Below, piece after piece: positions 1 through 62,980 of a stretch of 64,000 nucleotides of DNA; the first letter of the stretch is position 1; every line of letters starts with the position of its first letter. The notes beneath the pieces were generated by a model, which worked only from the letters and a program-made list of their open reading frames with translations, was not told where the DNA came from and did no database searches. Both the position numbers and the translations under genes were made by a program. Source of the DNA: a virus (taxonomy: Duplodnaviria; Heunggongvirae; Uroviricota; Caudoviricetes); IMG/VR virus record IMGVR_UViG_3300047202_000291, one strand, 5' to 3'.

Positions 1-3000
1 ATTAGTCCAGCCGGTATTTCTCAGGTCTTTGCTCTAGGTGATGAAGTAGCATATTCAGCACAAGTTCCAATAATATCAAATATTACTGAATATGGTGAAA
101 CCGCAAATAGCATAAATATAAGTTGGTTTGTTGATCAGCCAGTAGATAATAGAATGCAGATTGCTAAGAATCCTTGGATACTTGATGCTGCTTGGGCTAG
201 CAGAATTATTAATTATACTGAAACTTTTGAGCACATATATGCTGACACAGATACTTCGGTTCGCCTTTATGTTAGGCCCCCGTATTATGGTGGGATAGTT
301 AGTGTTGTTTGCTCAAATCCAGCATATAGCGCAAATTATTTAATTAATGATAGCGCGAGTCCTGTCGAAATTACTTTCGGGGATGTTAATGAGACAGATT
401 ACTATGATTGGACTATAACTTATATTTTGAATGATACTATACAATGGAATACGGGTAGACCGGCTTTCATGGTAGATAATTTAGATGCGGACACAACTTA
501 TTATTATAGGCTTTGGGCATACGGCCTCGGTGGGCTCAATACAACTCAGGACGGAAGCTTCACTTTAGGAACTCCTCCGGCGACACCTTTATCTGAGATT
601 CACAACTATACTGAGAATAGGCCCGATGAGCAGGTTATAGTCTGTGGTGAACTTACAGATATGAATAGCGAATCTTCAATAGATTGTTCAATTCAATATT
701 GGAACGAGGAATCAACTACCTTCGGGGAAACAACCGCAGATACCATGACCTCAACAGGAACATTCTGTAAGACAATTGATGTTAACTATGGTCACACTTA
801 TGGCTATAGAGCTAAATGTGCTGCCTCAACCACCGGTTATAGTGACGCATACTTTAACGAATTCATGGCAATTCAACCATTCTTTGCCGGCAATCCGATA
901 GAGGATGATCAGGATTATGAAGATAGGCAATATTGTCCTGCGGGTCCTGGAATAGAGCCTTGTTATGAACAGAGAGGATACCGCGAAGGTTCATTGCAGG
1001 AGGAAGATTGGATATGGATAGAGACAAATATTACTGATCAAGGTACTTTAACAGTTCATTGGTGGGATGATGGTTGGTCAACCTATGATATGACAAATGA
1101 CACCGATTCAGATATGAGATATTTGGAATTAACAGGTCTAGATTCTGATTGGCAGACATTTTATATAACGGGATCAGCAGATAATTTGGTTTTGAATTGG
1201 ACAAAGCCATCTATGATTCATTTGGTAAATCAGAATAGGACCGACGAATCAAAATATGTTGCATTCGGAGGAACTCCAACTGCCATTGATTATCAATTAC
1301 TCTATATGGATTCTCAAATATATGATATAAGCGCATATAGGTGGTGCATTGCAGCCGGTGGTTCTCTGTATGATTGCATGGGAGTTCAGTATTGGGGTGG
1401 TGGCTACGAAACTGGGATTCCTCCGTCTTTAAGCGGAACTTCTTATGATAGAGGTCAGCTTTTCAGAGGCGGTGTGATTAATGGTGAAATGTACGACACC
1501 GGGATTCTTACAGAAATTAGGGACACCGGCAAATCTCTTGGGGATGATGTTTATAATCAAAGGTACTGCTTCGCATTCACAGATTACTGGTGGGATTATT
1601 CAATTGTTCCAAGTAACAATATAACTAATTATTATTATCATTATTGGACTGAGAATGAGAAATATTCAGATTATCTTGGTCATAATCAAGATAGGTTATT
1701 TGATTATATATATTTGATGAGATTTGAATATGATGAGTTTAGCATGACGAGGGACTGGAAAGCCATAACTGGAACCACCCAATATGATGAAAATGTGGTT
1801 AAGACTGCGAGTGGTTCTAATTGGGGTACCTCAGCAGATCAAAGTTTGCTTGTTGGCTATGTGGGTGGATTCAATGTAGCAACCGATAAGGATCAGATTT
1901 ACAACTTTGGATTCTATACTGATGGAAGGTGGACAAATCAACAGTTCGGTAAGTATCAGCAGGCCTTCGTTATATTCAACCTGCCGGATAATGCGACTCT
2001 TCAGAGCATGGACAGCGATTCTGATAATTTGACAGATTATGATGAGTTGTATATATATTATACTAACCCGAAGAGCAATGACACTGATGAAGATGGTAGA
2101 GTGGATACATATGAGATTTTATATGATTATGACCCTAATTTGCCAGATTCTTGTGGCGTTGATGATAATGCTTGTGATTATTGTCAGAAATGTGTTTTAG
2201 GAACGTGTACTTTTGAGGCCGCCGATGAGGATGTGAAAGATGATTGTGACTTATATTTTGATGATTGTACAAATGCTTATACCTTGTTAGGGTCTAGTGG
2301 ATTCTGTGATGGTGCCGGAGATTGCGCTTACCATGATTTCGAAGCCAATGTTTCTATAGGAAAGATTTGTGTTGCTGGGCAGAATGTTAGTCCTTCGAAC
2401 AGCGTAAATTGCGGAATTTGGGCTGATTGTGTTGCCGGAACTACAAATACTAGCAGTACATATTTTGTTGGTTATGCCGGCGATGGTACAGCTACTTGTG
2501 ATGATACTGGTTGGGTTTATAGGGGTTGGTCTAATTTCACTATGCCTGCAGGACCAAGAGAATCCTTTGCATCAGCAGTCTTCGATGGAAAAATGTGGCT
2601 TTTTGGTGGAATTGATGCTAATCCGTCATGGAACGCTTATAATGATGTTTGGTCTTCTACTGATGGGATTAATTGGACTCTCGTAACTGATAATGCTAGT
2701 TGGTCTAAGAGAGATAATATGGTGGCAATTGTTTATGACAATAAGATGTGGATCATGGGCGGTTACACTATAACCGGTGTTGAAAATGATGTTTGGTATT
2801 CGACAGATGGTGCTAATTGGATTCTTGCGACCGAACATGCAAATTGGTCTGATAGATATGCTTTTGGGTTAGTTGTATTTAATGGTGCAATGTGGCTCAT
2901 AAGCGGAACTCCAACTGGCTATGCGTGGGATACTGATATTTGGAATTCTACCGATGGAATAAGTTGGAATCACGTAACTGATCAAGCTTGGCCTTATTAT

Positions 3001-4140
3001 GGAAGAGAGTATTTTGAAGTTGTTGTATTTAATAATACAATGTGGTTAATCGGAGGTCATCGGTTAGCTGGTAGTAATTGGTATTCTACGGATGGGGTTT
3101 CTTGGGCCTCTTATGATCCGCCAACAAATTATTGGGGTCAGGGAACTGTGGTGCTTGATGATAAAATATGGGTCACTGGAGGATATGTGTGGGGTGTGGG
3201 AACAAGATCAGATATGTGGTATTCTTCAAATGGATTAAATTGGATTGAATCTGAGTCTAATGCTCCTTGGGGCCCGAGAGTTTATCATGAATCATTAGCA
3301 TATGATGATAAAATATGGCTTTTTGGAGGATCGCCAGACGGTGGGGATTGGGCATATGATGACCTTTGGACTAATGAGCCACCGACATTAGATGTTACTT
3401 CAGGGTATGTCATAAATGTTACCGAGCATGCCGAAGTGTGTCAGGAGATCCTTATTACGGTAAATGTTACTGGGGTTACAACAGATCAGTCAAGCGTAAG
3501 TCCACTAGAAGGATCAACAGTTGATGTATTTTTTAATGTATTTTTAGAGAAGGTTCTTGGGGGGATAACTTCTTACAATATATCCGCAGTGTCTCCTTCA
3601 GGTGCAAGATACGCAGCAACCTGTAACTATACTTTATTTAACATGTCTTGTGTAGTGCCGATGCAGTATTATTATGAGCCGGGATTATGTGATGTGGATG
3701 TATTTGTTAGCGATAATAATGGAAGCGGTGCCCTTTATAAGGATGATTTATTTGATTATGGGTCACTCTTGGCGATGAGAAAAGATAGAGATTATATGGC
3801 TTTGACCGGATCATTTATTGGATTGAATAATGTGTCATTTGATATGCCTATTGATATGACTAATTCTGGGAATGAGAATATTACGGCCATAAAGCTGACG
3901 GCATATGACATTCCTGGGGCCGTTGTTCCTTCAAAGAAGATATTGGCATCTTATTTTAGGGCGGGAATAAGCCTGTCTGATTCAGTGCAGCTTGAGAATA
4001 GTGTCGAGAAGAACATACCCTTTGCATTAACTCCAGGTCCAAATGCAACTGCTGCCTTCGGGATGTGGGTCTCAGTTCCAGCAGATGCTTATCCGCAGGC
4101 TTATGTTTCGGTTATTCCCTGGCAAATAATATTTGAATAA
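1..4140 (+). CDS. Large surface/adhesin-like protein, 5'-partial (frame open from nt 1). Repeated ~47-aa beta-propeller (Kelch/BNR-like) units, Cys-rich module, DxDxDG Ca-binding-like motif, many N-x-S/T sequons
   Basis: No stop in frame from nt 1. About 9 repeats of W.STDG.NW...W..R...VF...MW..GG (nt ~2560-3400). Cys-rich CGVDDNACDYCQKC...; NPKSNDTDEDGRVD. Confidence 0.8.
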   Translation: MSPAGISQVFALGDEVAYSAQVPIISNITEYGETANSINISWFVDQPVDNRMQIAKNPWILDAAWASRIINYTETFEHIYADTDTSVRLYVRPPYYGGIVSVVCSNPAYSANYLINDSASPVEITFGDVNETDYYDWTITYILNDTIQWNTGRPAFMVDNLDADTTYYYRLWAYGLGGLNTTQDGSFTLGTPPATPLSEIHNYTENRPDEQVIVCGELTDMNSESSIDCSIQYWNEESTTFGETTADTMTSTGTFCKTIDVNYGHTYGYRAKCAASTTGYSDAYFNEFMAIQPFFAGNPIEDDQDYEDRQYCPAGPGIEPCYEQRGYREGSLQEEDWIWIETNITDQGTLTVHWWDDGWSTYDMTNDTDSDMRYLELTGLDSDWQTFYITGSADNLVLNWTKPSMIHLVNQNRTDESKYVAFGGTPTAIDYQLLYMDSQIYDISAYRWCIAAGGSLYDCMGVQYWGGGYETGIPPSLSGTSYDRGQLFRGGVINGEMYDTGILTEIRDTGKSLGDDVYNQRYCFAFTDYWWDYSIVPSNNITNYYYHYWTENEKYSDYLGHNQDRLFDYIYLMRFEYDEFSMTRDWKAITGTTQYDENVVKTASGSNWGTSADQSLLVGYVGGFNVATDKDQIYNFGFYTDGRWTNQQFGKYQQAFVIFNLPDNATLQSMDSDSDNLTDYDELYIYYTNPKSNDTDEDGRVDTYEILYDYDPNLPDSCGVDDNACDYCQKCVLGTCTFEAADEDVKDDCDLYFDDCTNAYTLLGSSGFCDGAGDCAYHDFEANVSIGKICVAGQNVSPSNSVNCGIWADCVAGTTNTSSTYFVGYAGDGTATCDDTGWVYRGWSNFTMPAGPRESFASAVFDGKMWLFGGIDANPSWNAYNDVWSSTDGINWTLVTDNASWSKRDNMVAIVYDNKMWIMGGYTITGVENDVWYSTDGANWILATEHANWSDRYAFGLVVFNGAMWLISGTPTGYAWDTDIWNSTDGISWNHVTDQAWPYYGREYFEVVVFNNTMWLIGGHRLAGSNWYSTDGVSWASYDPPTNYWGQGTVVLDDKIWVTGGYVWGVGTRSDMWYSSNGLNWIESESNAPWGPRVYHESLAYDDKIWLFGGSPDGGDWAYDDLWTNEPPTLDVTSGYVINVTEHAEVCQEILITVNVTGVTTDQSSVSPLEGSTVDVFFNVFLEKVLGGITSYNISAVSPSGARYAATCNYTLFNMSCVVPMQYYYEPGLCDVDVFVSDNNGSGALYKDDLFDYGSLLAMRKDRDYMALTGSFIGLNNVSFDMPIDMTNSGNENITAIKLTAYDIPGAVVPSKKILASYFRAGISLSDSVQLENSVEKNIPFALTPGPNATAAFGMWVSVPADAYPQAYVSVIPWQIIFE

Positions 4141-4339: not shown

Positions 4340-5254
4340 ATGAGGGGTTGGCATTATGAATCTCATAGGCATAGTCTTGCAGCCAAAGGCATAAAGACTT
4401 CTCAGCCAAAGCTTGCCAAGGTTCTCAGATCAGAAAATATCATCTTTGAGCCAAAATACGATGGCACGCGCATGATTCTTGAGAAGAAGGGTTCTGAGCT
4501 TACATTCATCAATAGGCGCGGTGTCGTAAAGAATGATACTTATCCTGAATTATATAATATTAATAAGAGCATCAAGGGCGATGTAATTCTCGATGGTGAA
4601 GTTGTCGTTCTAGATAAGGAGCATCCCTTTGGCAATTTTGAAAAGCTCGCAATGAGAGATAGGCTAAAAGATAAAGAGGAAATAGAGAAAAGATCCAAAA
4701 CCCTTCCATTGACTTATGTTGTTTTTGATATTCTGGAAAAAGACAGGCAAAAGGTGGCAGATTTGCCATTGTCCGAGCGGAAGAAGATTCTTGATAATGT
4801 GATTGCACAAGGAAAGAACATCAGAGAAATAGAGTTCTCAAATAAATCAAGCGAGATGTTGTCTAAAGTTAAGCAGGCAAAAGGAGAAGGAATTGTGCAA
4901 AAAGACATCAATTCTAAATATGCACCAGGTTCCACGAGGTCCTGGGAAAAATACAAGCTTCTTAAGACAAATGATGTGGCAATAATTGGTATCACTTTAG
5001 GGACGGGAAGAAGAAAAGGTTATTTTGGTGCATTAAAGATTGCAGTTAATACTCCAAAAGGTTTAAAACCTGTTGGAAAAGTCGGCACCGGATTCTCAGA
5101 CGCTGATTTAAAGGAGATAAAAAGTAGATTGGATCAAGGTGAAAAACTCGTTGCTCGAATTCAATATAGAAAAATAGGTAGTGCTGATCATTATATTGAA
5201 CCTCGTTTTCAGGCAATTCGAACAGATATTTCTCAAAGTGATACGCACGAATGA
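4340..5254 (+). CDS. ATP-dependent DNA ligase (small, viral-type) carrying the shared N-terminal GW.YESYRHSLAAKGIKT module
   Basis: Motif I EPKYDGTRM (KxDGxR), motif III VILDGEVVV, motifs V/VI GIVQKD...WEKYKLLK. SD AGGGTGAG upstream. Confidence 0.85.
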   Translation: MRGWHYESHRHSLAAKGIKTSQPKLAKVLRSENIIFEPKYDGTRMILEKKGSELTFINRRGVVKNDTYPELYNINKSIKGDVILDGEVVVLDKEHPFGNFEKLAMRDRLKDKEEIEKRSKTLPLTYVVFDILEKDRQKVADLPLSERKKILDNVIAQGKNIREIEFSNKSSEMLSKVKQAKGEGIVQKDINSKYAPGSTRSWEKYKLLKTNDVAIIGITLGTGRRKGYFGALKIAVNTPKGLKPVGKVGTGFSDADLKEIKSRLDQGEKLVARIQYRKIGSADHYIEPRFQAIRTDISQSDTHE

Positions 5255-5522: not shown

Positions 5523-6359
5523 ATGAAGGGTTGGTATTACGAATCTTATCGTCATAGTCTTGCAGCCAAAGGTATAAGGACAAATTGGGTGTTAATCAAT
5601 GAGAATCCGAGCTATAAGCGCATAAGAATCAATCGCGGATATAAAGATGTCGTCCAGGTAGATGCAAAGACTCTTAAAGAGCGTTTTGAGAAGGATAATA
5701 ATACTCCTCTTGCTTGGAAGCAATTAAGATTCGATCTTCTGAAAAACTGTGAGGAGTTTGATCAATATCCTGAGGTTGATATTCTTTCTTCTGGCAAAAT
5801 AGATTTTAATGATGGTCGTCATAGGGTTGCTGTGGCCGCAGCTCGTGGCGAGACAATCGAAATAGCAGTTAAAAATAAAGATAAATTTCTTGAGGCTTTC
5901 AGTAAGCATTCTTTTGCTGCAAAGCAGGATCCTTATGAATTTCAGGATAGCAATCAGGAGAAGATAGTTCATGCTGATTGGTGGGGTGAGCAACAATATG
6001 ATGCGAATCATAGGCCTCTTCCTTTGCTCTGGAAAGATAATGAGCTCAGATTTGTTCTTGAGGGCTCTGGCGATATTTTCAGGGAGTTCTCAATACATAA
6101 AGCGGATAACTGGTGGTTTGCTCAGAATTATATTGATGAGAAGGCAGCCCGCATTAAGAAATATCTGACTGATCCTTCTTTGGCGAATCATTCCGTCGGA
6201 GAGATAAATAAAGCAAAGCTTGCAGAGATTAGAAGGCTTTGGACAATTCAGCCTTACGAAACAGAGTTGCAGAAGAAAGCTATTGATCTGAACCTTGCGA
6301 TAATTGATAAGGACAATGAGAAGGCACTTTCAATCTTAAAGGAGGTTTCGAAAGTATGA
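5523..6359 (+). CDS. ParB-like nuclease domain protein with the shared N-terminal module
   Basis: ParB/Srx motif FNDGRHRVAVAAARGE. N-terminus MKGWYYESYRHSLAAKGIRT. Confidence 0.7.
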   Translation: MKGWYYESYRHSLAAKGIRTNWVLINENPSYKRIRINRGYKDVVQVDAKTLKERFEKDNNTPLAWKQLRFDLLKNCEEFDQYPEVDILSSGKIDFNDGRHRVAVAAARGETIEIAVKNKDKFLEAFSKHSFAAKQDPYEFQDSNQEKIVHADWWGEQQYDANHRPLPLLWKDNELRFVLEGSGDIFREFSIHKADNWWFAQNYIDEKAARIKKYLTDPSLANHSVGEINKAKLAEIRRLWTIQPYETELQKKAIDLNLAIIDKDNEKALSILKEVSKV

Positions 6360-7105
6360 ATCGTTACAAACCCCTTGGTTGGCGTTATGAATCATACAGG
6401 CATTCCTTAGCAGCCAAAGGCATCAAAACAAGGTATAAGGTGCCTCCGGCATGGAGAAATGTTAAGTATTATAAGGATAAGCCGTATGTTGTAACTGGTG
6501 TTGATAAGAAAGGTAGGGTTCAATATATTTATCCTGAATCTTTTTCTTCTGCAAGCAGTGAAAAGAAGTTTAATAGGATTGAGCGCTTTGAGAAGCAAGC
6601 ACCGGCTATAATCGATTCTGTAATGAAGGATGTTAAAAAAGGAGATAATCCCGAGGCCGAAGTTGTTTATACGATGTACAAAACTGGATTTAGGCCAGGT
6701 TCGGAGAATGATACAATGGCGGAGAAGAAGGCGTTTGGTGCATCAACTTTGCTTAAGGATCACGTTTCTGTGCGAAAAGATGATGTTAAGTTTAAATTCA
6801 TTGCTAAGAAAGGCGTTCCTGTTGAAAAAGACGTTAAGGATAAGCTTCTTGCAGATATAATTAAGAGGCGCATGCAAAGTAGACGGCTCTTTGATACCTC
6901 TGAAGGTCGTTTAAGGGCTTATTTTGATAAAAAGACCCAAGGTAGGTTCCAATTAAAGGACCTGAGGACTTTGAAGGCCTATGAGGTCGCTAAGGAGGCT
7001 GGTGGCGATAAGAAGGAGATAGCTGAACGCGTTTCAGAGGAGCTCAGCAATACGCCCGCAGTCGCGATAAGTTCTTATGTTCATCCGAGGCTGATTAATG
7101 AATAG
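6356..7105 (+). CDS. Type IB topoisomerase-like catalytic-domain protein (compact) with the shared N-terminal module
   Basis: YKTGFRPGSENDTMAEKKAFGASTLLKDHVSVRKDDVKFKFIAKKGV resembles the poxvirus-type TopoIB core (GccsLr.eHv...v.F.F.GK). C-terminal LRTLKAY is a possible catalytic Tyr. N-terminus GWRYESYRHSLAAKGIKT. Confidence 0.5.
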   Translation: MNRYKPLGWRYESYRHSLAAKGIKTRYKVPPAWRNVKYYKDKPYVVTGVDKKGRVQYIYPESFSSASSEKKFNRIERFEKQAPAIIDSVMKDVKKGDNPEAEVVYTMYKTGFRPGSENDTMAEKKAFGASTLLKDHVSVRKDDVKFKFIAKKGVPVEKDVKDKLLADIIKRRMQSRRLFDTSEGRLRAYFDKKTQGRFQLKDLRTLKAYEVAKEAGGDKKEIAERVSEELSNTPAVAISSYVHPRLINE

Positions 7106-7760: not shown

Positions 7761-8809
7761 TTGTCAATACTGTCATCGACTTACTTGGGCAAGCTGGGAG
7801 AAACTAAATCACCCTCAACCTCTTTTCCTCTAATTCTTTCTCCCAGCTGTTTGATATATAGTTTCCACTTCAACAAATTATATAAACTCCAAAATCAGAT
7901 TGATTCTTATGTCGTGGACCACTAAGCAGGGCGGTCTTCTCGTCGAAGAGGACGATGAGGAGCTCTGAGCAGTAATACCGTGTGCTTAGTGCCGTGAGGC
8001 TCCCAATTTATGGATGAAGAAAAAGTTATGCAAAGGATTGAGCATCTTGTTCTTGATATTTGCGGGTGCACAAGATCCGAAGCAATTCACATACTTAAAA
8101 AAACAAGCAAAAGGTTGAAAAATATGCAGAATAAGAATGGAACCTAAGCCCCATTGTTGATTTTTATAATCAACCGTGGGAGCTATGTTAAAAAACATAA
8201 AAGTCCAATGTGACTCTAAACCCAAATTGTTTATGATTGATGCGTTTTGCATCGATTTTTCAACGACAGTGACGGTATATGTGTTTGATTGCAAGAAAAG
8301 CATCAAGCAGTATTGCCGTGATGTAGAACTTCCTTTCGAAGAGGTATTTGAAAGATGGCTTTTATTTCAATAAGTAAGTGCATAGTTTCACTCAGTCGTT
8401 AAGCCCTAAAGGGCTTCTGTGCTTTGCTTGACAAGTGAAGTGCAGTTTGGACTGAGGTGGAACCTGTGAAGCATAAGGAGAGAAATAAGGGTGCTGGCAA
8501 GGCTGGCAAGTTTTTTCTGGACAGGATTGAATCCGGGAGGATTCGAACTCCTGAAAAATGGCAGAAGTATCAGCGAAAGCATATTAAGAAGGGGAAAAAG
8601 GGCAGGCGTCCTTATCCCTGGAGAAAAAAGAAAAAGAAAACATTTAAATAAGTAAACATCCACATCGATATATTGACGGGTGCGACGGAACACTATCTAT
8701 TGTATCCTCGGGTTGTATTAGTTGTTTTATAGCATATGGATTTATAAACTGGCTATGAAGTGCAGCGAGCTGGGGCGGGGGATAGGGGATTAATGGTTAT
8801 ACATTATGT

Positions 8810-9346
8810 TTGGTTAAGACATTCGGGGTGGTTACCATCGTAACCATCTCGGAAATAGCGACTGATTTTGGTTTCAAGGGCTCGAAATTTCATAAATACG
8901 CTGAAATTACTGGTTCTAGGCAGGTTACAATTGATGAGTCGACAGCTTCTGAAAACAACGTCGATACTTCTGTGGATTGCTATGTTGCAGGTACTTATAT
9001 TGGTCGAGATGGTGCAACCATAGAGGTTCGTCAAAGATATACGATCTATGTTTCTTACAGTCGTTCTACACAGAGGATTGCGATGACTAAAGTGCGTGCA
9101 GCAATTATCAATGACTTTGAGCATAATTTTCCAAATTTTCATATCATAGATGTTTTCCTTCCAGAGGAGAAGTTCATTATTCCTTTGGGTAAAGAAGGTC
9201 TGCGTGAATCAGAGGAGTTTTATTATGGGTCTGAGCTGTTTAAAGTGCTTTCACGTCGTGATGTTGGTCGATTCAGGGTCGGAACCGAAAAGGATATATT
9301 TAAGTCCCGTATTAGCCAGATAAAAAGAAGATTTAATTTGAGGTGA
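8810..9346 (+). CDS. Hypothetical protein (non-ATG start, TTG/GTG)
   Basis: 178-aa ORF. Start uncertain; overlaps a shorter minus-strand ORF. Confidence 0.4.
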   Translation: MVKTFGVVTIVTISEIATDFGFKGSKFHKYAEITGSRQVTIDESTASENNVDTSVDCYVAGTYIGRDGATIEVRQRYTIYVSYSRSTQRIAMTKVRAAIINDFEHNFPNFHIIDVFLPEEKFIIPLGKEGLRESEEFYYGSELFKVLSRRDVGRFRVGTEKDIFKSRISQIKRRFNLR

Positions 9347-9748: not shown

Positions 9749-10042
9749 ATGATGAAATATTATGATAGATGGACATTCATGCGCATTCTTCTTCATCTAT
9801 GGTCCACTGTTAACGGCGTCACTTTATCAGATTTGCGTAGGAAGATTGGTCTTAGGGTGACGATTGAGCACATTGATTGGCTTGAGAAGCACAAGTATGT
9901 GCGCAGAGTTCAGGATATTGATGATTTTCGAAAGCTCAATATTTATTTAACAGCGAAAGCAAAGCCAGTGTGCAAGGCATTAATGGATTTGAAATATTCC
10001 TTGCCAGAGGATTTGGGAAATGAATTTTTTAGGTCGCATTAA
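9749..10042 (+). CDS. Winged-helix DNA-binding protein (MarR/ArsR-like)
   Basis: GVTLSDLRRKIGL...HIDWLEKHKYVRR helix-turn-helix/wing pattern. SD TAGGAGG. Confidence 0.55.
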   Translation: MMKYYDRWTFMRILLHLWSTVNGVTLSDLRRKIGLRVTIEHIDWLEKHKYVRRVQDIDDFRKLNIYLTAKAKPVCKALMDLKYSLPEDLGNEFFRSH

Positions 10043-10547
10043 GCTTCTTTTTGAATATTTTAAAAAGAATGATATGACTCTACGCGAGTTTGCAATAGGT
10101 ATGAACTCAGAGGTCAGCATCAAGAAGGACCTTCATATTCTTTTCTTCGATTATGATGAAGTCTCCCAAGAAGATGTCGAGGAATCTGTATTGGAATGCC
10201 AGGTTTTTTGGAATCTTTCAGACTGTTTTCTCTATAAGACTGGGAATGGGTTTCATGCATATTTTTATTATGATATAATGCCCTACACAAGAGTGCGCAT
10301 GATTATCGACTTTGCTAAATATGTTGATCCAATGTTTAAGTTCATTGGCAGATTTTATGATTATAAAACCATACGCCAGGCAGGAAAATACAAAGTGCAG
10401 GACATTTCTTTCTTGAAAATGATCCCGGGCAAGAGAACGCCCACTCTGGGAGAGGCTGAATTAGGTGATCTGAAGCGCAGGGAACGTGAATATTTATCCC
10501 AGATGCACGGCATTTTGAAGCCAGAAGTATTAAAAGACAAGAAATAA
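10020..10547 (+). CDS. Archaeo-eukaryotic primase (AEP)/primase-polymerase-like small protein
   Basis: AEP motif I ILFFDYDE (hhhDxD) and motif II TGNGFHAYF (sGxGxHxY). Lies directly upstream of the iteron-rich ORF-free region. Confidence 0.55.
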   Translation: MNFLGRIKLLFEYFKKNDMTLREFAIGMNSEVSIKKDLHILFFDYDEVSQEDVEESVLECQVFWNLSDCFLYKTGNGFHAYFYYDIMPYTRVRMIIDFAKYVDPMFKFIGRFYDYKTIRQAGKYKVQDISFLKMIPGKRTPTLGEAELGDLKRREREYLSQMHGILKPEVLKDKK

Positions 10548-10759
10548 TTACTACTAAAAAGTGGGCATAAACATAAGCATTAACATAAACATCGACGATA
10601 ATGCATATGTCTCGTGCTTATGCCAAGAACATATGCTTGTGCTGGCTTAATGCTATATTTCTTGTTTTTGGGTGTCTTGAATTAGTTGATATTTTACTAC
10701 TTTTTAGTTATAAAATATTAAATTAACTACTGATTAGGAATTAAGAAAGGTTTAATAAT

Positions 10760-11035
10760 AGGGGTTGTTTTCTACTCTTGAAATAAGAGAAGGGGGGTTT
10801 TTAGCTATGAGTATTAAAGGGGGTTTATTTTTGTATGAAAGGGGGTTTAATAGGGCGATAAATAAAGGGCTATTTCTTGCGGTAATAAGGGCGATTAATA
10901 AGGGCGATATAAGGCGATATAAAAAGGCGATTTCTTGCGACTATTTAGGGCGACTAATAAGGGCGACTATTAAAGGGTTTTCTAAAAGGTTTTCTCTTGC
11001 GATTAAAGGGGTTTCTCATTATCTAATTTTTTAAT
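10760..11035. repeat. Iteron array (GGGGGTTT, TAATAAGGGCGA[TC], TTCTTGCG families)
   Basis: Direct repeats visible in sequence. The 89-aa ORF the track calls here has a translation that simply mirrors the repeats. Confidence 0.6.
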
Positions 11036-11234
11036 CACCTTTCGGTAATAACCACCACCACCAAAAAGTTTATATACTGAATATGCTTTTCTCCTTCTCA
11101 TATCGCCTATAACGGCGGTTTTGGTATTTAACCAAAAATAAGGTTTTAACCAATTAAAAGGGCAAAACGCAACCTTTAAGGCGAAAGTTTTAAAGGTTTA
11201 GGTTAAAGTTTAGTATCCTACCTTTTTGAATACT

Positions 11235-11256
11235 GCTCACTTACAGGGCTATTCGC
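11235..11256 (+). promoter_or_regulatory. 22-nt element GCTCACTTACAGGGCTATTCGC; reverse complement of the element at 52926-52948
   Basis: Near-exact (single 1-nt indel) inverted copy 41.7 kb away; sits ~120 nt upstream of the gene starting at 11373. Confidence 0.5.
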
Positions 11257-11372
11257 ACAGGAAAAACTACCTTTTCTTTTAAGGACTACGAGCATTAACA
11301 TTAAGTTCTTTTGTTAATTAAAAGGGCTTAATTTCGTTCTCCATTATTAAAACCAAATCGGAGGCGATAATA

Positions 11373-11834
11373 ATGGAAACAATAGAGAAAACAAAAATAG
11401 TAGTTCCAGAGAAAATACCTGCCCAAATCTCTAAAAAATTAGAGATGTTTGGAGAGGTTGTAGATGTAGATTTCGTTTTTGCTGGAGTAGGCAAAAATGG
11501 AACAAGGCATATATCTACAAAGTCATTTGTTCCTTCTAATGAGAAGGAAGCAAAGGCTTTTGTCATAAAGCCGTGTTTGAAGGGCTTTAAGACAGCAGAG
11601 GGATATAGAAATCCTTGGGTATGGTATTTAAACCACAAGGGTATTGTCTTTAATGACGACGGCACAATAGCCATAGTCTTAAAAGACCAAACAGAGCCAA
11701 CTATTTATAAGGTTGAGCATAAGATGATTCTCTATAATGGGGAATTATCGAATAGGAGTGGTATCACCACTTTTAGAAGGGCGGACAACGACAGCGAAAC
11801 CAGCGAACTACCATATTCGCTGGTAGAGGAATAA
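11373..11834 (+). CDS. Hypothetical protein
   Basis: Start context GGAGGCGATAATAATGG (shared with the genes at 18671 and 53187). Confidence 0.65.
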   Translation: METIEKTKIVVPEKIPAQISKKLEMFGEVVDVDFVFAGVGKNGTRHISTKSFVPSNEKEAKAFVIKPCLKGFKTAEGYRNPWVWYLNHKGIVFNDDGTIAIVLKDQTEPTIYKVEHKMILYNGELSNRSGITTFRRADNDSETSELPYSLVEE

Positions 11835-16598: not shown

Positions 16599-17450
16599 AT
16601 GCCAGAACTAATGCCGATGCTCTTGCAGGAAGTGGAATTCTCAGAGGATGTCTTTGAGAAATATAAAGACTATGTTTGGCAAGAGAAGGAAAATGGCGTG
16701 CGGGTTATGGTTCATATAAAAGACGGGAAGATTTCTGCAGTAAGAAATAGGCGAAATAATCCTGTCTTGCATTTGTATCCAGAACTAACTGCACTTGATT
16801 TTGGGAAAATTAGTGCTATCTTGGACGGCGAACTTGTTGTCTTTAAAAATAACAAGAGTGTTTTCTATGGTGGTATTAATCAAAGGGATAAGCTTTATTC
16901 AAAGGATTCTGTGGAGAAATTTCCAGTTACATTTGTGGCTTTTGATATGATTTTTCTTAATAAGGAAATTCTATTAGGTAAGCCACATAATGAGAGGTAT
17001 GAACTTTTGAATACTGGATTTCTTTCATATACTGGAAAGCACTTTGTAATCTCTGATAATATTGCTGACCCAAAGAAATACTGGGCTGAGCACGTTATTC
17101 CGGAAGGAAGAGAAGGCTTGGTGCTTAAGGATCCCAAAAGCAAATATGAGCCAAGCCAAAGGTCTTGGTCTTGGCTGAAGCTTAAGAATTATAAGGTTGC
17201 TGAAGTGATTGTCGATAGCATTGATGTCAATGTTAAGGGCAATAAGATTACTGGAAAGGCAACTATTAATTCAGAAGTGTGTATTGTTGAGTGCCAATAC
17301 GGCGGCGTGTATAATATTCAGTTAGGCGATAAGCTTCCTGTCGAATATCTTGATATTGTCGGCGGGAAACTTATTCAGCCACATAAGCCAAGAAAATGGA
17401 AGCCAGAGGTGATTCAAAATGCCAGTGAAAATGAAAGTTCCAAAGATTGA
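16599..17450 (+). CDS. ATP-dependent DNA/RNA ligase (second copy; KxNG motif-I variant)
   Basis: Motif I KENGVR, motif III ILDGELVVF, motifs V/VI LVLKDPKSKY...WLKLK. Confidence 0.7.
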   Translation: MPELMPMLLQEVEFSEDVFEKYKDYVWQEKENGVRVMVHIKDGKISAVRNRRNNPVLHLYPELTALDFGKISAILDGELVVFKNNKSVFYGGINQRDKLYSKDSVEKFPVTFVAFDMIFLNKEILLGKPHNERYELLNTGFLSYTGKHFVISDNIADPKKYWAEHVIPEGREGLVLKDPKSKYEPSQRSWSWLKLKNYKVAEVIVDSIDVNVKGNKITGKATINSEVCIVECQYGGVYNIQLGDKLPVEYLDIVGGKLIQPHKPRKWKPEVIQNASENESSKD

Positions 17451-51905: not shown

Positions 51906-52235
51906 ATGAATTTTATTGAATACCAGCATTATAGCAGAAAAACTGCCATATATCCCGAACTCGGTAAAAATTTCTTATATCCGACAATAGGCTTATTCGG
52001 TGAATGTGGCGAAATCGCTGAAAAGATAAAGAAAATAATCAGGGATAAGCATAATAAGGTTTCTAAAGCTGATAAGATGGAAATAAAGAAAGAGCTTGGC
52101 GATGTCCTTTGGTACATCTCAGCATTATGCTCAGAATTAAAATTATCATTGAATGATGTTGCGGAATCAAATATAAGTAAGCTTCAATCAAGAAAGAATA
52201 GAAGTCTTCTGCACGGAGATGGCGATAACAGATGA
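51906..52235 (+). CDS. mazG: MazG-like nucleotide pyrophosphohydrolase
   Basis: FGECGEIAEK...ELGDVLWYISALC...NISKLQSR (EExxE/D metal-binding helices). Confidence 0.7.
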   Translation: MNFIEYQHYSRKTAIYPELGKNFLYPTIGLFGECGEIAEKIKKIIRDKHNKVSKADKMEIKKELGDVLWYISALCSELKLSLNDVAESNISKLQSRKNRSLLHGDGDNR

Positions 52236-52879: not shown

Positions 52880-52900
52880 AGCGAAACATTTAAATATATT
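52879..52900 (+). promoter_or_regulatory. BRE/TATA-like promoter AAAGCGAAACATTTAAATATAT
   Basis: Shares AAGCGAAACATTTA.ATAT with the 34087 promoter. Nothing but a 4-codon ORF follows before the terminator. Confidence 0.45.
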
Positions 52901-52911
52901 AAACTTACTTG

Positions 52912-52990
52912 ATTGATTATGTTTGCGAAATAGCCCTGTAAGTGAGCTGTGGCGGGATAATTAAACTTGTCCCGCCTTCATTTTTATAGG
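52912..52990 (+). ncRNA. Candidate ~80-nt small RNA (promoter, 23-nt element, intrinsic terminator), antisense-complementary to 11235-11256
   Basis: TATA at 52889-98. GCGAAATAGCCCTGTAAGTGAGC at 52926-48. Hairpin GGCGGGA-N12-TCCCGCC at 52952-77 followed by TTCATTTTT. Confidence 0.35.
52952..52990 (+). terminator. Hairpin plus T-tract terminator-like element
   Basis: GGCGGGATAATTAAACTTGTCCCGCC then TTCATTTTTA. Confidence 0.5.
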
Positions 52991-58730: not shown

Positions 58731-58931
58731 AAATGGAAAATAGAAAAATTTATAAACGTCATTGCATCACTGGTGCTTTATGGTAAGAATTAAGGGACTC
58801 ATACTGTGGTTGAAATCCACGACATCGGCTACCTTAAATAGTTCAGCGACCAGTTGCTGATCCATTTGCCATAGTTTTCTTCAATCATTATTTGCTATGG
58901 ACTTAAGATTTCTATGGCAATTTTTCACATT

Positions 58932-59089
58932 GGTTCCGTAGCTTAGCAGTTAAAGCATCTGGCCGTTAGTGCGTCCGTCACAGACCCCAAATCTGTGCAG
59001 CATCGTGACCTGCGAATAATTGTTTTGACGCGGGACAACGCAAGACAACGGTGACCAGGCGAGCCTCGGTGCAAATCCGAGCGGAACCG
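58932..59089 (+). tRNA. tRNA with an ~85-nt intervening sequence (anticodon possibly GTT/Asn)
   Basis: Acceptor GGTTCCG/CGGAACC; D-arm GCTT-AGCAGTTA-AAGC; T-arm CTCGG-TGCAAAT-CCGAG. Anticodon stem TCTGG/CCAGG flanks an insertion at 37/38. Confidence 0.5.
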
Positions 59090-59109
59090 TTTTGGGTGCG
59101 TAGGTGCGT

Positions 59110-59198
59110 AGGTGCGTAGCTCAACAAAAGAGCACCAGGCCTTTTATCAATGAAAGAAACCTGCGAGGTTGCGAGTGAGAATCTCGTCGCGCCCACCA
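59110..59198 (+). tRNA. tRNA-like element with encoded 3' CCA, preceded by GGTGCGTA x3 (identity unresolved)
   Basis: 3' CGCGCCC-A-CCA; D-arm GCTC-AACAAAA-GAGC; T-arm GCGAG-TGAGAAT-CTCGT. Anticodon region irregular. Confidence 0.3.
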
Positions 59199-59200
59199 TT

Positions 59201-59274
59201 GGGGTTGTGGGGTCTTAACAGAAACCTGTCGGTCTCCAGAACCGAAGATCCGTGTGCGAATCACGGCAATCCCA
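59201..59274 (+). tRNA. tRNA-Trp (CCA)
   Basis: Acceptor GGGGTTG/CAATCCC; anticodon arm TCGGT-CTCCAGA-ACCGA; T-arm CCGTG-TGCGAAT-CACGG. Confidence 0.7.
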
Positions 59275-59284
59275 TTTTTTTAAA

Positions 59285-59356
59285 GGGCTCTGGGTAGGGA
59301 AGCGACACGCCTCGCTTGCAACGAGGAAACAGCGCGAGCATTACGCGCAGAGTCCA
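59285..59356 (+). tRNA. tRNA-Ala (TGC)-like
   Basis: Acceptor GGGCTCT/AGAGTCC; anticodon arm CCTCG-CTTGCAA-CGAGG; T-arm GCGCG-AGCATTA-CGCGC (atypical loop). Confidence 0.35.
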
Positions 59357-59416
59357 TTATTTGTAATCATTACAAAAAATAATGATTAATAATCATATCG
59401 CGAAAAAAAGTTATAT

Positions 59417-59499
59417 GCGCAGTTGGGGAAGCGGTCAAACCCGCTCCGCTTAGGACGGAGTGCCTAGCGCTACCACAGGTTCGAATCCTGTACTGCGCA
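59417..59499 (+). tRNA. tRNA-Leu (TAG), type II
   Basis: Acceptor GCGCAGT/ACTGCGC; anticodon arm CTCCG-CTTAGGA-CGGAG; 14-nt variable arm; T-arm ACAGG-TTCGAAT-CCTGT. Confidence 0.8.
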
Positions 59500-59501
59500 T
59501 C

Positions 59502-59617
59502 GCGGACGTGTCCGAGCGGCCGAAGGAGCCAGATTCAAATAAAGGCTAAACTTAAAGCCATCGGAGAAATCTGGTGCTAAGTGCATAACAACAGCGGTTC
59601 AACTCCGCTCGTCCGCA
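59502..59617 (+). tRNA. tRNA-Leu (CAA) with an ~30-nt intron at 37/38
   Basis: Acceptor GCGGACG/CGTCCGC; anticodon stem CCAGA...TCTGG flanks TTCAAA plus a hairpin-containing insert; long variable arm; T-arm AGCGG-TTCAACT-CCGCT. Confidence 0.7.
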
Positions 59618-59621
59618 GTTT

Positions 59622-59706
59622 GCTGTGGTAGGACAACAGTAGTCCAGCTGGCCTGTAAAAAAAATCAAGTAACCAGCCAATCCCGATGCAACTTCGGGCC
59701 GCAGCT
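59622..59706 (+). tRNA. tRNA with a ~14-nt intron (anticodon probably TGT/Thr)
   Basis: Acceptor GCTGTGG/CCGCAGC; D-arm GGAC-AACAGTA-GTCC; anticodon stem GCTGG/CCAGC flanks 21 nt; T-arm CCCGA-TGCAACT-TCGGG. Confidence 0.5.
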
Positions 59707-59764
59707 TATTAATATTTCAGGCTTAAAATGTTAATCAGAAATTCCTTATTAATATTAGTGATAT

Positions 59765-59836
59765 GGAACAGTGGCCAAGCAGTAAGGCGCGAAGCTGCAA
59801 TCTTCGTATGCGAGAGTGCAATCCTCTCCTGTTCCT
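59765..59836 (+). tRNA. tRNA-Cys (GCA)
   Basis: Acceptor GGAACAG/CTGTTCC; anticodon arm CGAAG-CTGCAAT-CTTCG; T-arm GAGAG-TGCAATC-CTCTC. Confidence 0.7.
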
Positions 59837-59838
59837 TT

Positions 59839-59983
59839 GCCCGGATGATTGGGGAATCTGGTAATCCCGCTGGTCCGCTAATGCCCAGAATCGAATGGCT
59901 TAGCCCAGAATTGAATTTTGGACTTGCCCAGAATGGAACACCAGGATCGAAAGGTCATCTCGGTTCGAATCCGAGTCCGGGCG
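59839..59983 (+). tRNA. tRNA with a ~65-nt intervening sequence containing 3x GCCCAGAAT (identity unresolved)
   Basis: Perfect acceptor GCCCGGA/TCCGGGC; canonical T-arm CTCGG-TTCGAAT-CCGAG; D-arm region with GG. Confidence 0.45.
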
Positions 59984-60506
59984 TATGATTCAGAGTAAAC
60001 CATATGTGAAGACAGTGAATTATCATTGCCTTAGATGTAAATCTTAATAAATCGCATTTTAAGAGAGACTCGACGGTGATCTGTAAGACCTGTGGTTCAG
60101 AGCGTCGATGGAACCAAAAAATTTAAATATAAGTGTATGCTACAACATAAAGGATACTTGGTTTCCTTCATGCTTTCGATGCAAGGCCCGGGGAGAGCCT
60201 CAATCTCCTCATTTATATTCATTGAATAGCGGCTTCGGAAAAGGGGCTGATAACAACAGGCGAGGCTGTTGATAACCCAGTCGCTCAAAAATTCAGGTGA
60301 TTTACTTTCAATGTTAAACATGGAACAGAACGGACTGAGCATCGGAAGAACCGGGCGAACTCAAAGGAGATATATCGCCGGTTGCTTTGGGCATCAAGTA
60401 GACCAGCCCATAGTCCAATAGGCCTCTTCTGTTCCATAACAGCTTCTAAAAATTTGTGGACATTCCATTGGTTGTTTTGGAACAGCCAGAGTTCTATTCG
60501 GATTAT

Positions 60507-60578
60507 ACGGACTTAGTAGAATAGCTAGCACGCAGGGCTCATAACCCTGAGAAGGTGGCGCAATTCCACCAGTCCGTA
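60507..60578 (+). tRNA. tRNA-Met/Ile2 (CAT)
   Basis: Acceptor ACGGACT/AGTCCGT; anticodon arm CAGGG-CTCATAA-CCCTG; T-arm GGTGG-CGCAATT-CCACC; weak D-stem. Confidence 0.55.
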
Positions 60579-60606
60579 GTTATTCACACTTAACTATGAT
60601 ATGTTC

Positions 60607-60679
60607 CTGCGCTTGGTGTAACAGCTTAGCACAATTGGCCGTAGCCCAATTAGAACCGGTGCAATTCCGGTAGCGCAGA
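60607..60679 (+). tRNA. tRNA-Tyr (GTA), short variable arm (archaeal/eukaryal type)
   Basis: Acceptor CTGCGCT/AGCGCAG; anticodon arm ATTGG-CCGTAGC-CCAAT; 4-nt variable region; T-arm ACCGG-TGCAATT-CCGGT. Confidence 0.65.
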
Positions 60680-60681
60680 TT

Positions 60682-60754
60682 GGCCTCATGGTGTAACAAG
60701 TCAACATGTAAGCCTGTCAAGCTTACGCTTCGGATGCAAGATCCGATGAGGCCG
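60682..60754 (+). tRNA. tRNA-Asp (GTC)
   Basis: Acceptor GGCCTCA/TGAGGCC; anticodon arm TAAGC-CTGTCAA-GCTTA; T-arm TCGGA-TGCAAGA-TCCGA. Confidence 0.75.
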
Positions 60755-60823
60755 TTGCAGGCGTAGCTAAGCAGTCACAGCACGCAGATATGCAAAATTA
60801 TTTAAATAAGCATCATATCACAT

Positions 60824-61285
60824 ATGAATATGATGTGGAAAACATGGAAAAGAATTAGTAGGGGAGAATATTGGTTTGCAAAGATTCCAGAGCATCCTAA
60901 TGCAGATAAGAATGGATATGTGCTCGAGCATAGGATTATTATGGAAAATTTGCTAAATAGAGTATTGCAATCATCAGAAATTGTTCATCATGAAAATAAA
61001 AATACAAAAGATAATCGACCTGAAAATTTAAAATTGATGAATAAAGGAATCCATGCTAGAGAACACAATTTAGAAAGGGGGAGGATTTTTGTAAAATTAA
61101 GATGTCCTAATTGTGGAAAACAATTTATAAAGGCAAAAAATCAAACCCATCTAACAGCAAAAAGAAATTCAGCCACTTTTTGTTCATTAAAGTGTTCTGG
61201 AAAGCACAAGCACAATTACGAGCCCAATATTATTGAAGTATTCAAAACAAAAAATTCCGGAACACGAGATAAAGCAAAAATATGA
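60824..61285 (+). CDS. HNH homing endonuclease (HNH_3 family), AT-rich insert within the tRNA array
   Basis: GYVLEHRIIMENLLNR...EIVHHENKNTKDNRPENLKLM...HAREH. Confidence 0.8.
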   Translation: MNMMWKTWKRISRGEYWFAKIPEHPNADKNGYVLEHRIIMENLLNRVLQSSEIVHHENKNTKDNRPENLKLMNKGIHAREHNLERGRIFVKLRCPNCGKQFIKAKNQTHLTAKRNSATFCSLKCSGKHKHNYEPNIIEVFKTKNSGTRDKAKI

Positions 61286-61294
61286 TTCTTTTCT

Positions 61295-61407
61295 GCAGGT
61301 GTGTCCAAGCGGTCAAGGAGCCCGACTGATACGTCAAGTGTCCGGGAATTATATGTCCCCTTGACTAAGAGTTCGGGAAAGCGCAGGTTCGATTCCTGCC
61401 ACCTGCA
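61295..61407 (+). tRNA. tRNA-Ile (GAT) with a 40-nt intron at 37/38
   Basis: Acceptor GCAGGTG/CACCTGC; CCCGA-CTGATA|intron|T-TCGGG; T-arm GCAGG-TTCGATT-CCTGC. Confidence 0.65.
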
Positions 61408-61411
61408 TTTT

Positions 61412-61484
61412 GCTCCTGTAGTTAGCCTGGTTAATCACACCGGACTTTCAATCCGGAGCTCGAGTCCAAATCTCGACAGGAGTA
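61412..61484 (+). tRNA. tRNA-Glu (TTC)
   Basis: Acceptor GCTCCTG/CAGGAGT; anticodon arm CCGGA-CTTTCAA-TCCGG; T-arm TCGAG-TCCAAAT-CTCGA. Confidence 0.6.
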
Positions 61485-61485
61485 T

Positions 61486-61559
61486 GGGGTCGTAGTGTAG
61501 TTTGGTATCATCCTTCGCTTGGGACGAAGTGATCCTGCGTTCGAATCGCAGCGACCCCA
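61486..61559 (+). tRNA. tRNA-Pro (TGG)
   Basis: Acceptor GGGGTCG/CGACCCC; anticodon arm CTTCG-CTTGGGA-CGAAG; T-arm CTGCG-TTCGAAT-CGCAG. Confidence 0.75.
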
Positions 61560-61611
61560 TTCAGTTGATTATAACAACAAATATGATGATTTCGGTTGAG
61601 AATAGAAATGC

Positions 61612-61683
61612 GCGGAGGTAATTTAGTAGTAAAATGCTTCGTTGCCAACGAAGATAGCGTGGGTGCGATCCCCACCTTCCGCA
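61612..61683 (+). tRNA. tRNA-Gly (GCC)
   Basis: Acceptor GCGGAGG/CTTCCGC; D-arm ATTT/AAAT; anticodon arm CTTCG-TTGCCAA-CGAAG; T-arm GTGGG-TGCGATC-CCCAC. Confidence 0.7.
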
Positions 61684-61728
61684 TTAGATAAAAAATATAT
61701 GAAGTATGGAAAAATCTCCATACATTAT

Positions 61729-61801
61729 TGGCGCGTAGTGAAACAGACGATCACGGCAGCCTTCTAAGCTGCAGTTCCGGATGCAACTTCCGGCGTGCCA
61801 A
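61729..61801 (+). tRNA. tRNA-Arg (TCT)
   Basis: D-arm GTGA/TCAC; anticodon arm GCAGC-CTTCTAA-GCTGC; T-arm CCGGA-TGCAACT-TCCGG; acceptor TGGCGCG/CGTGCCA (one GU pair). Confidence 0.65.
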
Positions 61802-61803
61802 TT

Positions 61804-61877
61804 GCGCGCATCGGCTAATCAGGATATGTCGTCCAGCTACGGACTGGAAGGTGTGGATTCAAATTCCACTGCGCGCT
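61804..61877 (+). tRNA. tRNA-Arg (ACG)-like
   Basis: Acceptor GCGCGCA/TGCGCGC; anticodon arm TCCAG-CTACGGA-CTGGA; T-arm GTGGA-TTCAAAT-TCCAC; D-arm irregular. Confidence 0.5.
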
Positions 61878-61878
61878 T

Positions 61879-62121
61879 ATGAAATTTGAACAGCATTGCA
61901 AAAAAAGTAAGAGGCTCTTCAACGAAGATGGAGCTCTCTTTCATAGATGGATTGATATGTTCGCAGCAGAGGAAGGATATGCGCACAGGCATATCTTGCA
62001 TACATTCAAAGGAATGATACTTGGAATAGAGATATTTGGAGAAGCTGCAGGAAAGCACCTTGAGCAGCACATAAGGGATGACTTGCAATTAAAGAAGAAA
62101 GATGAGCTTCCAATATTTTAA
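61879..62121 (+). CDS. Hypothetical protein (His-rich), abutting the tRNA 3' end
   Basis: ATG 2 nt after the tRNA; 80 aa. Confidence 0.4.
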   Translation: MKFEQHCKKSKRLFNEDGALFHRWIDMFAAEEGYAHRHILHTFKGMILGIEIFGEAAGKHLEQHIRDDLQLKKKDELPIF

Positions 62122-62168
62122 ACACCTCTGAACCTGGAAACACCAGCGCGCATCTGGTCGGCGGAATT

Positions 62169-62240: not shown

Positions 62241-62244
62241 TCCA

Positions 62245-62903: not shown

Positions 62904-62904
62904 T

Positions 62905-62978: not shown

Positions 62979-62980
62979 TT

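Follow-up and report, generated by a model that had tools for sequence, protein, structure and literature searches.

Replication origins of archaeal viruses are, to our knowledge, almost unmapped, and we know of none for the large viruses of methanogen or methanotroph lineages. Among the closest described systems, the orf56/orf904 operon of pRN1 is followed by its origin, a stem-loop located in the next 166 bp (PMC4234260), and RepB' of RSF1010 primes on the ssiA and ssiB hairpins of oriV (PMC8567376). For the archaeo-eukaryotic primase (AEP) of an archaeal plasmid, a winged-helix domain is the proposed reader of the origin (PMC5862659). Here we describe a locus with comparable parts in IMG/VR record IMGVR_UViG_3300047202_000291, of which a stretch of 64,000 nt was analysed (the window; all coordinates are window positions). 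The region 10548-11372 is a composite, non-coding control region between two operons. It begins directly behind the gene for a 175-aa AEP-fold protein and contains a hexamer-repeat hairpin, an AT-rich tract and an array of short direct repeats (iterons), followed by a promoter and a structured leader. We estimate a probability of roughly 40% that the part from 10548 to about 11040 is a replication origin served by the upstream operon.

Direct repeats, AT-rich tract and hairpin behind an AEP-fold gene

No tandem repeat in the 64 kb scores higher than the iteron array (Tandem Repeats Finder, TRF, score 162, from a 59-nt super-repeat present twice), which is also the only large tandem-repeat cluster there; its motifs are clustered nowhere else in the window. 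For the stretch from 10740 to 11330, the window density predicts 1.0 AAGGG and 0.2 GGGTTT, where 11 and five are present. All units lie on the G-rich + strand, whose GC skew reaches +0.9 across the array, at spacings of 11-14 and 20-27 nt with one gap of 35 nt. The iteron-like repeats on which the original prediction was built are therefore genuine and have no counterpart elsewhere in the window, and most of its details were borne out. Three copies of AAGGGGGTTT had been placed about 24 nt apart; two are exact (10817-10826 and 10839-10848), but the third (10790-10800) carries one extra G and the spacings are 27 and 22 nt, with degenerate copies at 10972 and 11005. The tandem pair of TAATAAGGGCGAT (10883-10895 and 10896-10908) was found as described, as were its related and degenerate copies, TAATAAGGGCGAC at 10955-10967, TATTTAGGGCGAC at 10942 and AAGGCGAT at 10909 and 10922. 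TTCTTGCG, also reported as threefold, is exact twice (10874 and 10932), its third copy being TCTCTTGCG (10993-11001). The flanking motifs said to be related by a dyad, TACTACTAAAAAGT (10549-10562) and TACTACTTTTTAGT (10695-10708), hold a perfect 10-nt inverted repeat (10553-10562/10699-10708). Further 'aaagg' repeats do continue to 11330, as had been claimed, but those beyond 11040 belong to the transcribed, structured leader module.

The most AT-rich 90 bp abut the array, with a GC content of 17-22% at 10660-10750 against a window mean of about 38%. The locus combines two features expected of an iteron origin, at least three clustered, locus-specific direct repeats of one orientation and an adjacent AT-rich candidate unwinding element. 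TWACTACTNNNNAG (TWACTACTN4AG), a family that the original prediction had caught only in part, occurs three times in the window, always inside 10548-10737 (0.13 expected), and variants of it are present in the related loci L001, L004, L009 and L010. The array does not have the structure of a CRISPR array (repeats of at least 24 nt with unique spacers between them), consisting of 10-13-nt units without spacers, and Rfam returned nothing with E < 0.75 on the region.

We compared the module with that of relatives at loci L001/L002, L004/L005/L008, L009, L010 and L011-L016, taking identity at third codon positions of the AEP gene as the neutral baseline (0.64-0.65 to L001 and L010; 0.46-0.48 to L004 and L009). 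The order of its parts is syntenic in relatives. Array identity to L001 and L010 is 62-90%, and in L004 and L009 the array is replaced by 8-9 units of AAAGGGTTT only. An AAAGGG(G/T)TT core, always on the same strand, is kept in five close lineages despite near-neutral divergence of the flanks. The winged helix-turn-helix (wHTH) protein encoded just upstream is 76% identical among the lineages with GGGCGAT iterons. In L004, a lineage with GGGTTT-only iterons, it is a divergent homologue (L004:5553-5807) that keeps the C-terminal KxVCKAL motif and differs in the recognition-helix region, while the AEP-fold protein is still 79% identical. Across lineages, a change of iteron type thus accompanies divergence in the recognition-helix region of the wHTH protein. 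The distance from array to promoter, read directly, varies from about 45 to 130 nt across lineages; in this the array is unlike a fixed promoter-proximal operator.

A hexamer-repeat hairpin and T-run follow the AEP gene in the window and in L001, L004, L009, L010, L011, L012, L013 and L014, in weaker versions in L009, L011 and L013. No other cis element of the module is conserved as widely as the hairpin, which is kept in relatives down to 53% AEP identity and which the original prediction had left out of account. Its sequence has turned over with the pairing kept: units are CATAAA in most lineages and GCAGAA in L012, and the fold z score is -2.7 in the window, -3.3 in L004 (an 18-bp perfect stem) and -3.4 in L012. 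In L014 the hairpin has 26-nt arms and has been pushed 2 kb from the AEP gene by an inserted 422-aa gene. The window hairpin, which like the stem-loop of pRN1 stands directly downstream of the AEP operon, has positional homologues in at least eight lineages. The T-rich tract behind the hairpin is probably the archaeal terminator of the AEP operon.

In relatives, mobile genes have entered precisely between the stop codon of the AEP gene and the hexamer hairpin, a hot spot for insertion. A LAGLIDADG homing endonuclease occupies it in L001/L002 (L001 6534-7001), in L009 (about 1750-2240) and also in L006, and a TnpB-like gene lies there in L010, on the reverse strand just upstream of the hairpin.

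Four genes stand behind the promoter at 8638, encoding p178, a 75-aa protein, the 97-aa wHTH protein and the 175-aa AEP-fold protein. The wHTH gene overlaps the start of the AEP gene by 23 nt, and the two share this single promoter. Against PDB sequences, the p178 profile gave only marginal matches (E >= 0.59), as did the wHTH protein (MarR-like, E >= 0.16), and the AEP profile gave no match. The AEP family comprises at least 70 metagenomic sequences, in which D44, D46 and H79 are invariant, lying within ILFFDYDE and TGNGFH (motif I, DxD; motif II, G-x-G-x-H); the AEP motifs that had been read in this gene, ILFFDYDE and TGNGFHAYF, are indeed there. The predicted fold supports membership of the AEP superfamily, whose catalytic fold carries a motif I DxD/E and a motif II histidine. 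The curated Pfam threshold is not reached (PF24387, 13.2 bits against a cut-off of 27), and 8 of 44 relatives match the same family weakly (best E 0.004). This protein, a single AEP-like domain, is a putative primase. Coordinates of all features are collected in Table 1.

Table 1. Features of the candidate origin, its flanking operons and the distant partner unit
Feature	Position	Strand	Remarks
BRE/TATA-type promoter AAACATTTAAATA of the p178/wHTH/AEP operon	8638-8650	+	one of nine AAANNTTTAWAWA matches
p178, conserved 178-aa protein of unknown fold	8810-9346	+	always upstream of the AEP gene
97-aa winged-helix (MarR/SarA-like) protein, candidate iteron binder	9749-10042	+	weak MarR/SarA matches
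175-aa minimal AEP-fold protein	10020-10547	+	DxD at 44/46; TGNGFH with H79
Three TWACTACTNNNNAG motifs (10548, 10694, 10724), with ACTAAAAAGT/ACTTTTTAGT inverted pair	10548-10737	+	motif scan
Hexamer repeats CATAAA/CATAAG/CATTAA, imperfect hairpin with GCTTATGCC	10564-10625	+	RNA fold
T-rich tract TATTTCTTGTTTTTGGG, probable archaeal terminator of the AEP operon	10655-10672	+	position kept in five close lineages and L014
AT-rich tract, 17-22% GC, with palindrome 10686-10721; candidate unwinding element	10660-10760		composition profile, inverted-repeat scan
Iteron array, about 15 same-orientation units: AAAGGGGGTTT type, TAATAAGGGCGAT type, TTCTTGCG spacers	10790-11015	+	59-nt super-repeat, twice
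BRE/TATA promoter CCAAAAAGTTTATATA of the downstream operon	11061-11076	+	promoter motif match; kept in five lineages
Hairpin ATCGCC-TATAAC-GGCGGT, then T-run, at leader start	11102-11129	+	terminator-like scan
Leader hairpin AACCTTTAAGGC-GAAA-GTTTTAAAGGTT	11171-11198	+	part of minimum free energy structure
Ultra-conserved leader block; site A GCTCACTTACAGGGCTATTCGCACAGG at 11235-11261	11207-11270	+	
Anti-Shine-Dalgarno TTCGTTCTCC paired with Shine-Dalgarno GGAGGCGA of gene 11373	11333-11367	+	RNAalifold consensus helix
First gene of the downstream operon, 153 aa, fast-evolving, no known family	11373-11834	+	
Distant partner unit: BRE/TATA 52884-52896, site B GCGAAATAGCCCTGTAAGTGAGC 52925-52947, hairpin 52951-52976, T-run	52884-52987	+	
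BRE/TATA AAANNTTTAWAWA motifs	8638, 11064, 22147, 34093, 42918, 52884, 58744, 60117, 63081	+	pattern scan

Replication origin or regulatory array

If the locus is an origin, the winged-helix protein would bind the approximately 15 direct iterons, and this binding would destabilise the adjacent AT-rich tract. The hexamer-repeat hairpin would then be extruded or exposed, the 175-aa AEP-fold enzyme might prime on the exposed DNA at the hairpin, and host or other viral proteins would extend the primer. This reading is favoured by the uniqueness of the array in the window, by the adjoining AT tract and hairpin, by the operon context, by the matched change of iterons and wHTH protein, and by the variable distance to the promoter.

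Several observations weigh against it. The units are short (10-13 nt), unlike classical iterons, which measure 17-22 bp. AAAGGG iterons are absent in L011-L013 (61-67% AEP identity) and L016, where a gap of 350-690 nt is kept, and the co-variation of wHTH protein and iterons comes from two lineage groups only. At 175 aa, the AEP-fold protein is without a helix-bundle or helicase domain and may be a repair enzyme, a role that is possible because two ATP-ligases and a topoisomerase IB (TopoIB) are encoded nearby and a PolX protein in relatives. Orc1/Cdc6, MCM, a superfamily 3 (SF3) helicase and a replicative polymerase were not detected by Pfam among the window open reading frames (ORFs), about 130 of which, of at least 60 aa, were scanned for Orc1/Cdc6 and MCM. 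The hairpin and T-run could be just a terminator. Cumulative GC skew, one of the checks advised by the original prediction, gave no support: skew is positive on both sides of the locus (+0.09 to +0.39 in the flanks), and the cumulative curve rises monotonically over the 64 kb with no sign change or inflection at the locus. That test is confounded, as all genes lie on one strand and a polarity switch is expected only if replication is bidirectional.

The main rival to the origin reading is a purely transcriptional control region, in which no replication starts. The hairpin and T-run would terminate the AEP operon, and the array would be a multi-site operator or activating platform through which the wHTH protein switches the 11061 promoter and so times the long downstream operon. 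The array does stand between a T-run terminator and a bona fide promoter consisting of a transcription factor B recognition element (BRE) and TATA box, wHTH/MarR-like proteins are typically transcription regulators, and the small protein of the pRN1 rep operon is a repressor. Such a region would also account for the absence of a GC-skew signal, for the loss of iterons in distant relatives, and for the strongest sequence constraint in the gap falling on the leader and not on the iterons. However, approximately 15 sites would serve one promoter while the other eight promoters have none, the array keeps no constant distance to its promoter, and neither termination nor operator function needs the AT-rich palindrome or the hexamer periodicity of the hairpin. 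We consider a purely transcriptional role somewhat less likely than an origin.

Alternatively, the repeats may be functionless products of slippage and duplication in a tolerant spacer, with the terminator, promoter and leader the only functional parts. Fast turnover of the array between lineages, its absence in distant relatives and the 59-nt super-repeat, which indicates recent duplication, are in keeping with this. Against it, the AAAGGG(G/T)TT core persists on the same strand in the five close lineages, array identity to L001 and L010 equals or exceeds the neutral 64-65%, and no comparable array occurs in other intergenic gaps; we consider a functionless array improbable.

We regard a centromere-like partition site of the parC/parS type as less probable again. 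In this reading, a small DNA-binding protein would attach cooperatively to the direct repeats and so segregate a genome kept in a plasmid-like carrier state. Same-orientation repeats of 10-13 nt at 11-13-nt spacing, unique to the window and just upstream of a promoter, fit such a site, the geometry of R1 parC being that of short same-orientation repeats just upstream of a promoter. However, the window showed no NTPase of the ParA, ParM or TubZ type, beside the array or elsewhere, and no integrase or other sign of a plasmid lifestyle was found.

That the array instead encodes a small basic protein (a 75-89-aa ORF, 10765/10807-11034, rich in I, K, G and R) is barely credible, since 1-nt indels relative to L010 shift its frame, the strand that gene callers assign differs between L001 and L002 where their DNA is identical, and no convincing Shine-Dalgarno (SD) sequence of the GGAGGTGA type seen in neighbouring genes precedes it. 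A + strand ATG ORF of 61-83 codons (69-91 from stop to stop) is nevertheless open over the array in five close lineages, with its ATG at an equivalent place (MSIKGG/MGIKGG/MSVKGV/MIKGF/MIKGV). Between the window and L010, two 1-nt indels shift the frame across about 70 nt of conserved DNA, TAGGGCGATAAATAAAGGGC reading NRAINKG in the window and VGRLINS in L010, so the reading frame is not conserved between these two. Open frames are expected here, as stop codons fall in a single frame of the repeat units, which is probably why the ORF stays open. The original prediction, which had called the region ORF-free and had dismissed an 89-aa ORF there as a mirror of the repeats, was right in that the region is non-coding.

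As for the 0.8-kb region as a whole, which had been put forward as a candidate origin, the first two thirds stay plausible, with the AT tract and hairpin flanking the repeats, but the last approximately 310 nt (11061-11372) are a promoter and a structured 5' leader of about 300 nt, not origin DNA.

The structured leader, its distant partner and the virus

At 11061-11076, a purine-rich BRE stands 5' of TTTAWAWA, intergenic and in the orientation of the genes, which predicts an archaeal promoter. The leader behind it (11095-11380) folds with z = -4.84. The stem at 11102-11129 differs in sequence in L001 with the pairing kept, and at the position of the hairpin 11171-11198, read directly, each lineage has a different hairpin, so that lineage-specific hairpins stand at fixed positions of the leader. 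Identity across the block 11207-11270 is 78-100%, against a neutral third-codon identity of 46-65%; a small ORF in this block was rejected, as a 1-nt indel shifts its frame between lineages. The model of the leader has the SD sequestered by an anti-SD hairpin. The protein encoded next (p153) is 45-48% identical in lineages whose AEP-fold proteins are 79-90% identical, had no family match, and yielded nothing useful in a search of PDB sequences.

Within the conserved block, site A (11235-11252 on the + strand) is perfectly complementary to 52930-52947 over 18 nt (0.00 expected), and over 23 nt if one indel is allowed. The partner, site B, lies 41.7 kb downstream, about 30 nt after a BRE/TATA box and followed by a GC hairpin and T-run; judged from this layout, 52884-52987 may give rise to a small RNA of about 65 nt or to a short leader. 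L019, L020, L021 and L022 keep both the sequence of the unit and its inverted orientation, and the hairpin in L021 differs in sequence but has the same form. RNAs from the two sites could pair because all transcription is from the + strand, and the predicted duplex has -45.8 kcal/mol, against -19.1 +/- 4.2 kcal/mol for other window segments. The complementarity thus suggests trans RNA-RNA control, as far as the duplex model goes. The two sites may alternatively be one shared DNA operator in opposite orientation, which the available loci cannot separate from RNA pairing. In a lineage with a variant site A, represented by a single locus (L017/L018), the partner was not present within 3 kb.

Independent of the origin question, trans regulation between two RNAs of an archaeal virus can be tested directly on the leader block and distant unit. 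A fuller scheme would join all these parts: a two-gene initiator (97-aa wHTH and 175-aa AEP-fold protein) acting on a tripartite origin of hairpin, AT tract and lineage-specific iterons, beside a leader controlled in trans by a small RNA from 41.7 kb away that pairs with a 23-nt block, in an uncultured, Methanosarcinales-associated family of viruses of about 117 kb; an antisense-RNA circuit would then stand beside the origin of an archaeal virus. As a whole, we think this scheme quite unlikely to hold in every part.

Several independent markers identify the element as a virus of archaea. The assignment follows from the TFIIB/TFB homologue of relatives L017/L018 (1-407), a Hjc-type resolvase encoded in the window, tRNA introns, the set of BRE/TATA boxes, and the sole match of the AEP family among GTDB species genomes, a contig in a metagenome-assembled genome binned to an uncultured Methanosarcinales archaeon (L016). 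Genome size is probably about 117 kb, because the window's MazG protein is 100% identical to one on a 117,127-bp JGI contig, with a close relative on one of 116,114 bp. Among named homologues, those closest to the window's MazG (51906-52235) are proteins of Patescibacteria (candidate phyla radiation, CPR), 62-67% identical; this is possibly a cross-domain transfer or a caveat on host assignment, and a CPR-bacterial host is outweighed by the archaeal markers just listed. Nucleotide and protein searches of the GenBank phage collection and IMG/VR gave no match.

The AAANNTTTAWAWA motif (BRE plus TATA box) has nine matches in the window, 1.7 being expected, and 9/9 are intergenic and on the + strand, the strand of all convincing genes. 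Two of the sites (34.09 and 52.88 kb) share a longer form, GCGAAACATTTAWATAT. From their placement, the nine motifs appear to outline the operon structure of the virus. A scan for bacterial sigma-70 promoters showed no enrichment (5 sites against 6.0 expected), and bacterial promoter logic was dropped once archaeal markers appeared. A cluster of 16-17 tRNA genes occupies 58931-63070. Its tRNA-Ile(GAU) (61294-61408) has an anticodon-loop intron of about 40 nt (37/38 in Rfam, 38/39 in ARAGORN; Rfam 56.7 bits), and ARAGORN -i predicts further introns in tRNAs for Asn (85 nt), Leu-CAA (29 nt), Ser (70 nt) and Val (13 nt). Such introns in viral tRNA genes are archaeal-type.

Two ATP-dependent DNA ligase genes (4340-5254 and 16599-17450) and a eukaryote/poxvirus-type TopoIB gene (6356-7105) are present in the window, and relatives add a PolX-thumb protein; together with the minimal AEP-fold protein, these resemble a split toolkit for non-homologous end joining or repair. 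Four consecutive proteins between 4340 and 7760, the ATP-ligase, a 278-aa protein, TopoIB and a 220-aa protein (ORFs 4340, 5523, 6356 and 7098), begin with a common motif of about 20 aa, GW(x)YES(Y/H)RHSLAAKGIKT. Similar GWRGDSExH(K/R)KAA repeats stand at the end of the LAGLIDADG endonucleases of L001 and L009, and motifs of this type may be a shared targeting or DNA-binding tag. A 1328-aa Kelch/beta-propeller protein (154-4140), in whose position L011 has a 1388-aa propeller/DUF285 protein, may have a role in host recognition or adhesion.

Comparison with known replication systems

An origin at this locus, if confirmed, would be a variant of known iteron and stem-loop origins, served by an unusually small AEP initiator, in a virus group unmatched in the searched collections. 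The compact cis element and its two-gene module of about 270 aa would be a candidate minimal replicon for Methanosarcinales genetics, and the very small stand-alone enzyme would allow the bare AEP core to be probed. The evidence is comparative only, and we see in it a useful lead, not a surprise.

With archaeal chromosomal and plasmid origins of the Orc1/Cdc6 type, the locus shares an AT-rich tract and repeated elements containing G-runs near a replication gene. Unlike them, it is without a detected orc1/cdc6 gene; origin recognition boxes (ORBs) are inverted and flank the AT tract, or DNA unwinding element, whereas the repeats here have one orientation, lie on one side and are without a dyad element. 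The arrangement of an orc1/cdc6 gene beside inverted ORBs is thus not that of the window.

The AEP superfamily (PriS, PrimPol, LigD-pol, RepB' and HP0184-like proteins) has in common with the window protein the predicted fold and the invariant residues of motifs I and II. In contrast to these enzymes, the window protein is very short, has no accessory domain and scores below the Pfam threshold.

The oriV of the IncQ plasmid RSF1010 differs in being bacterial, in having 3.5 iterons of about 20 bp where the array counts about 15 units of 10-13 nt, and in its two oppositely oriented ssi hairpins, where one hairpin is seen in the window. RSF1010 also has a dedicated RepA helicase, none having been found in the window, and its RepB' carries a helix-bundle domain that our AEP-fold protein is without. 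What the two share is the combination of direct iterons, an adjacent AT-rich region and one or more hairpins, which in RSF1010 are used by an AEP-fold primase.

From pRN1 of Sulfolobus, the locus differs in its enzyme. ORF904 is a 904-aa prim-pol with helix-bundle and SF3-helicase domains, an architecture that the 175-aa single-domain protein does not have. The stem-loop of pRN1 measures about 100 nt and is not built of hexamers, unlike the window hairpin; pRN1 is without an iteron array; and its small protein is a CopG-type repressor, whereas that of the window is a winged helix. Yet both systems pair a small DNA-binding protein with an AEP-family enzyme in a single operon, and in both a terminator (a probable one in the window) and a conserved stem-loop follow immediately downstream of the AEP gene (PMC4234260). 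By analogy, the modules at 10548-11015 resemble origins of the pRN1 and IncQ types.

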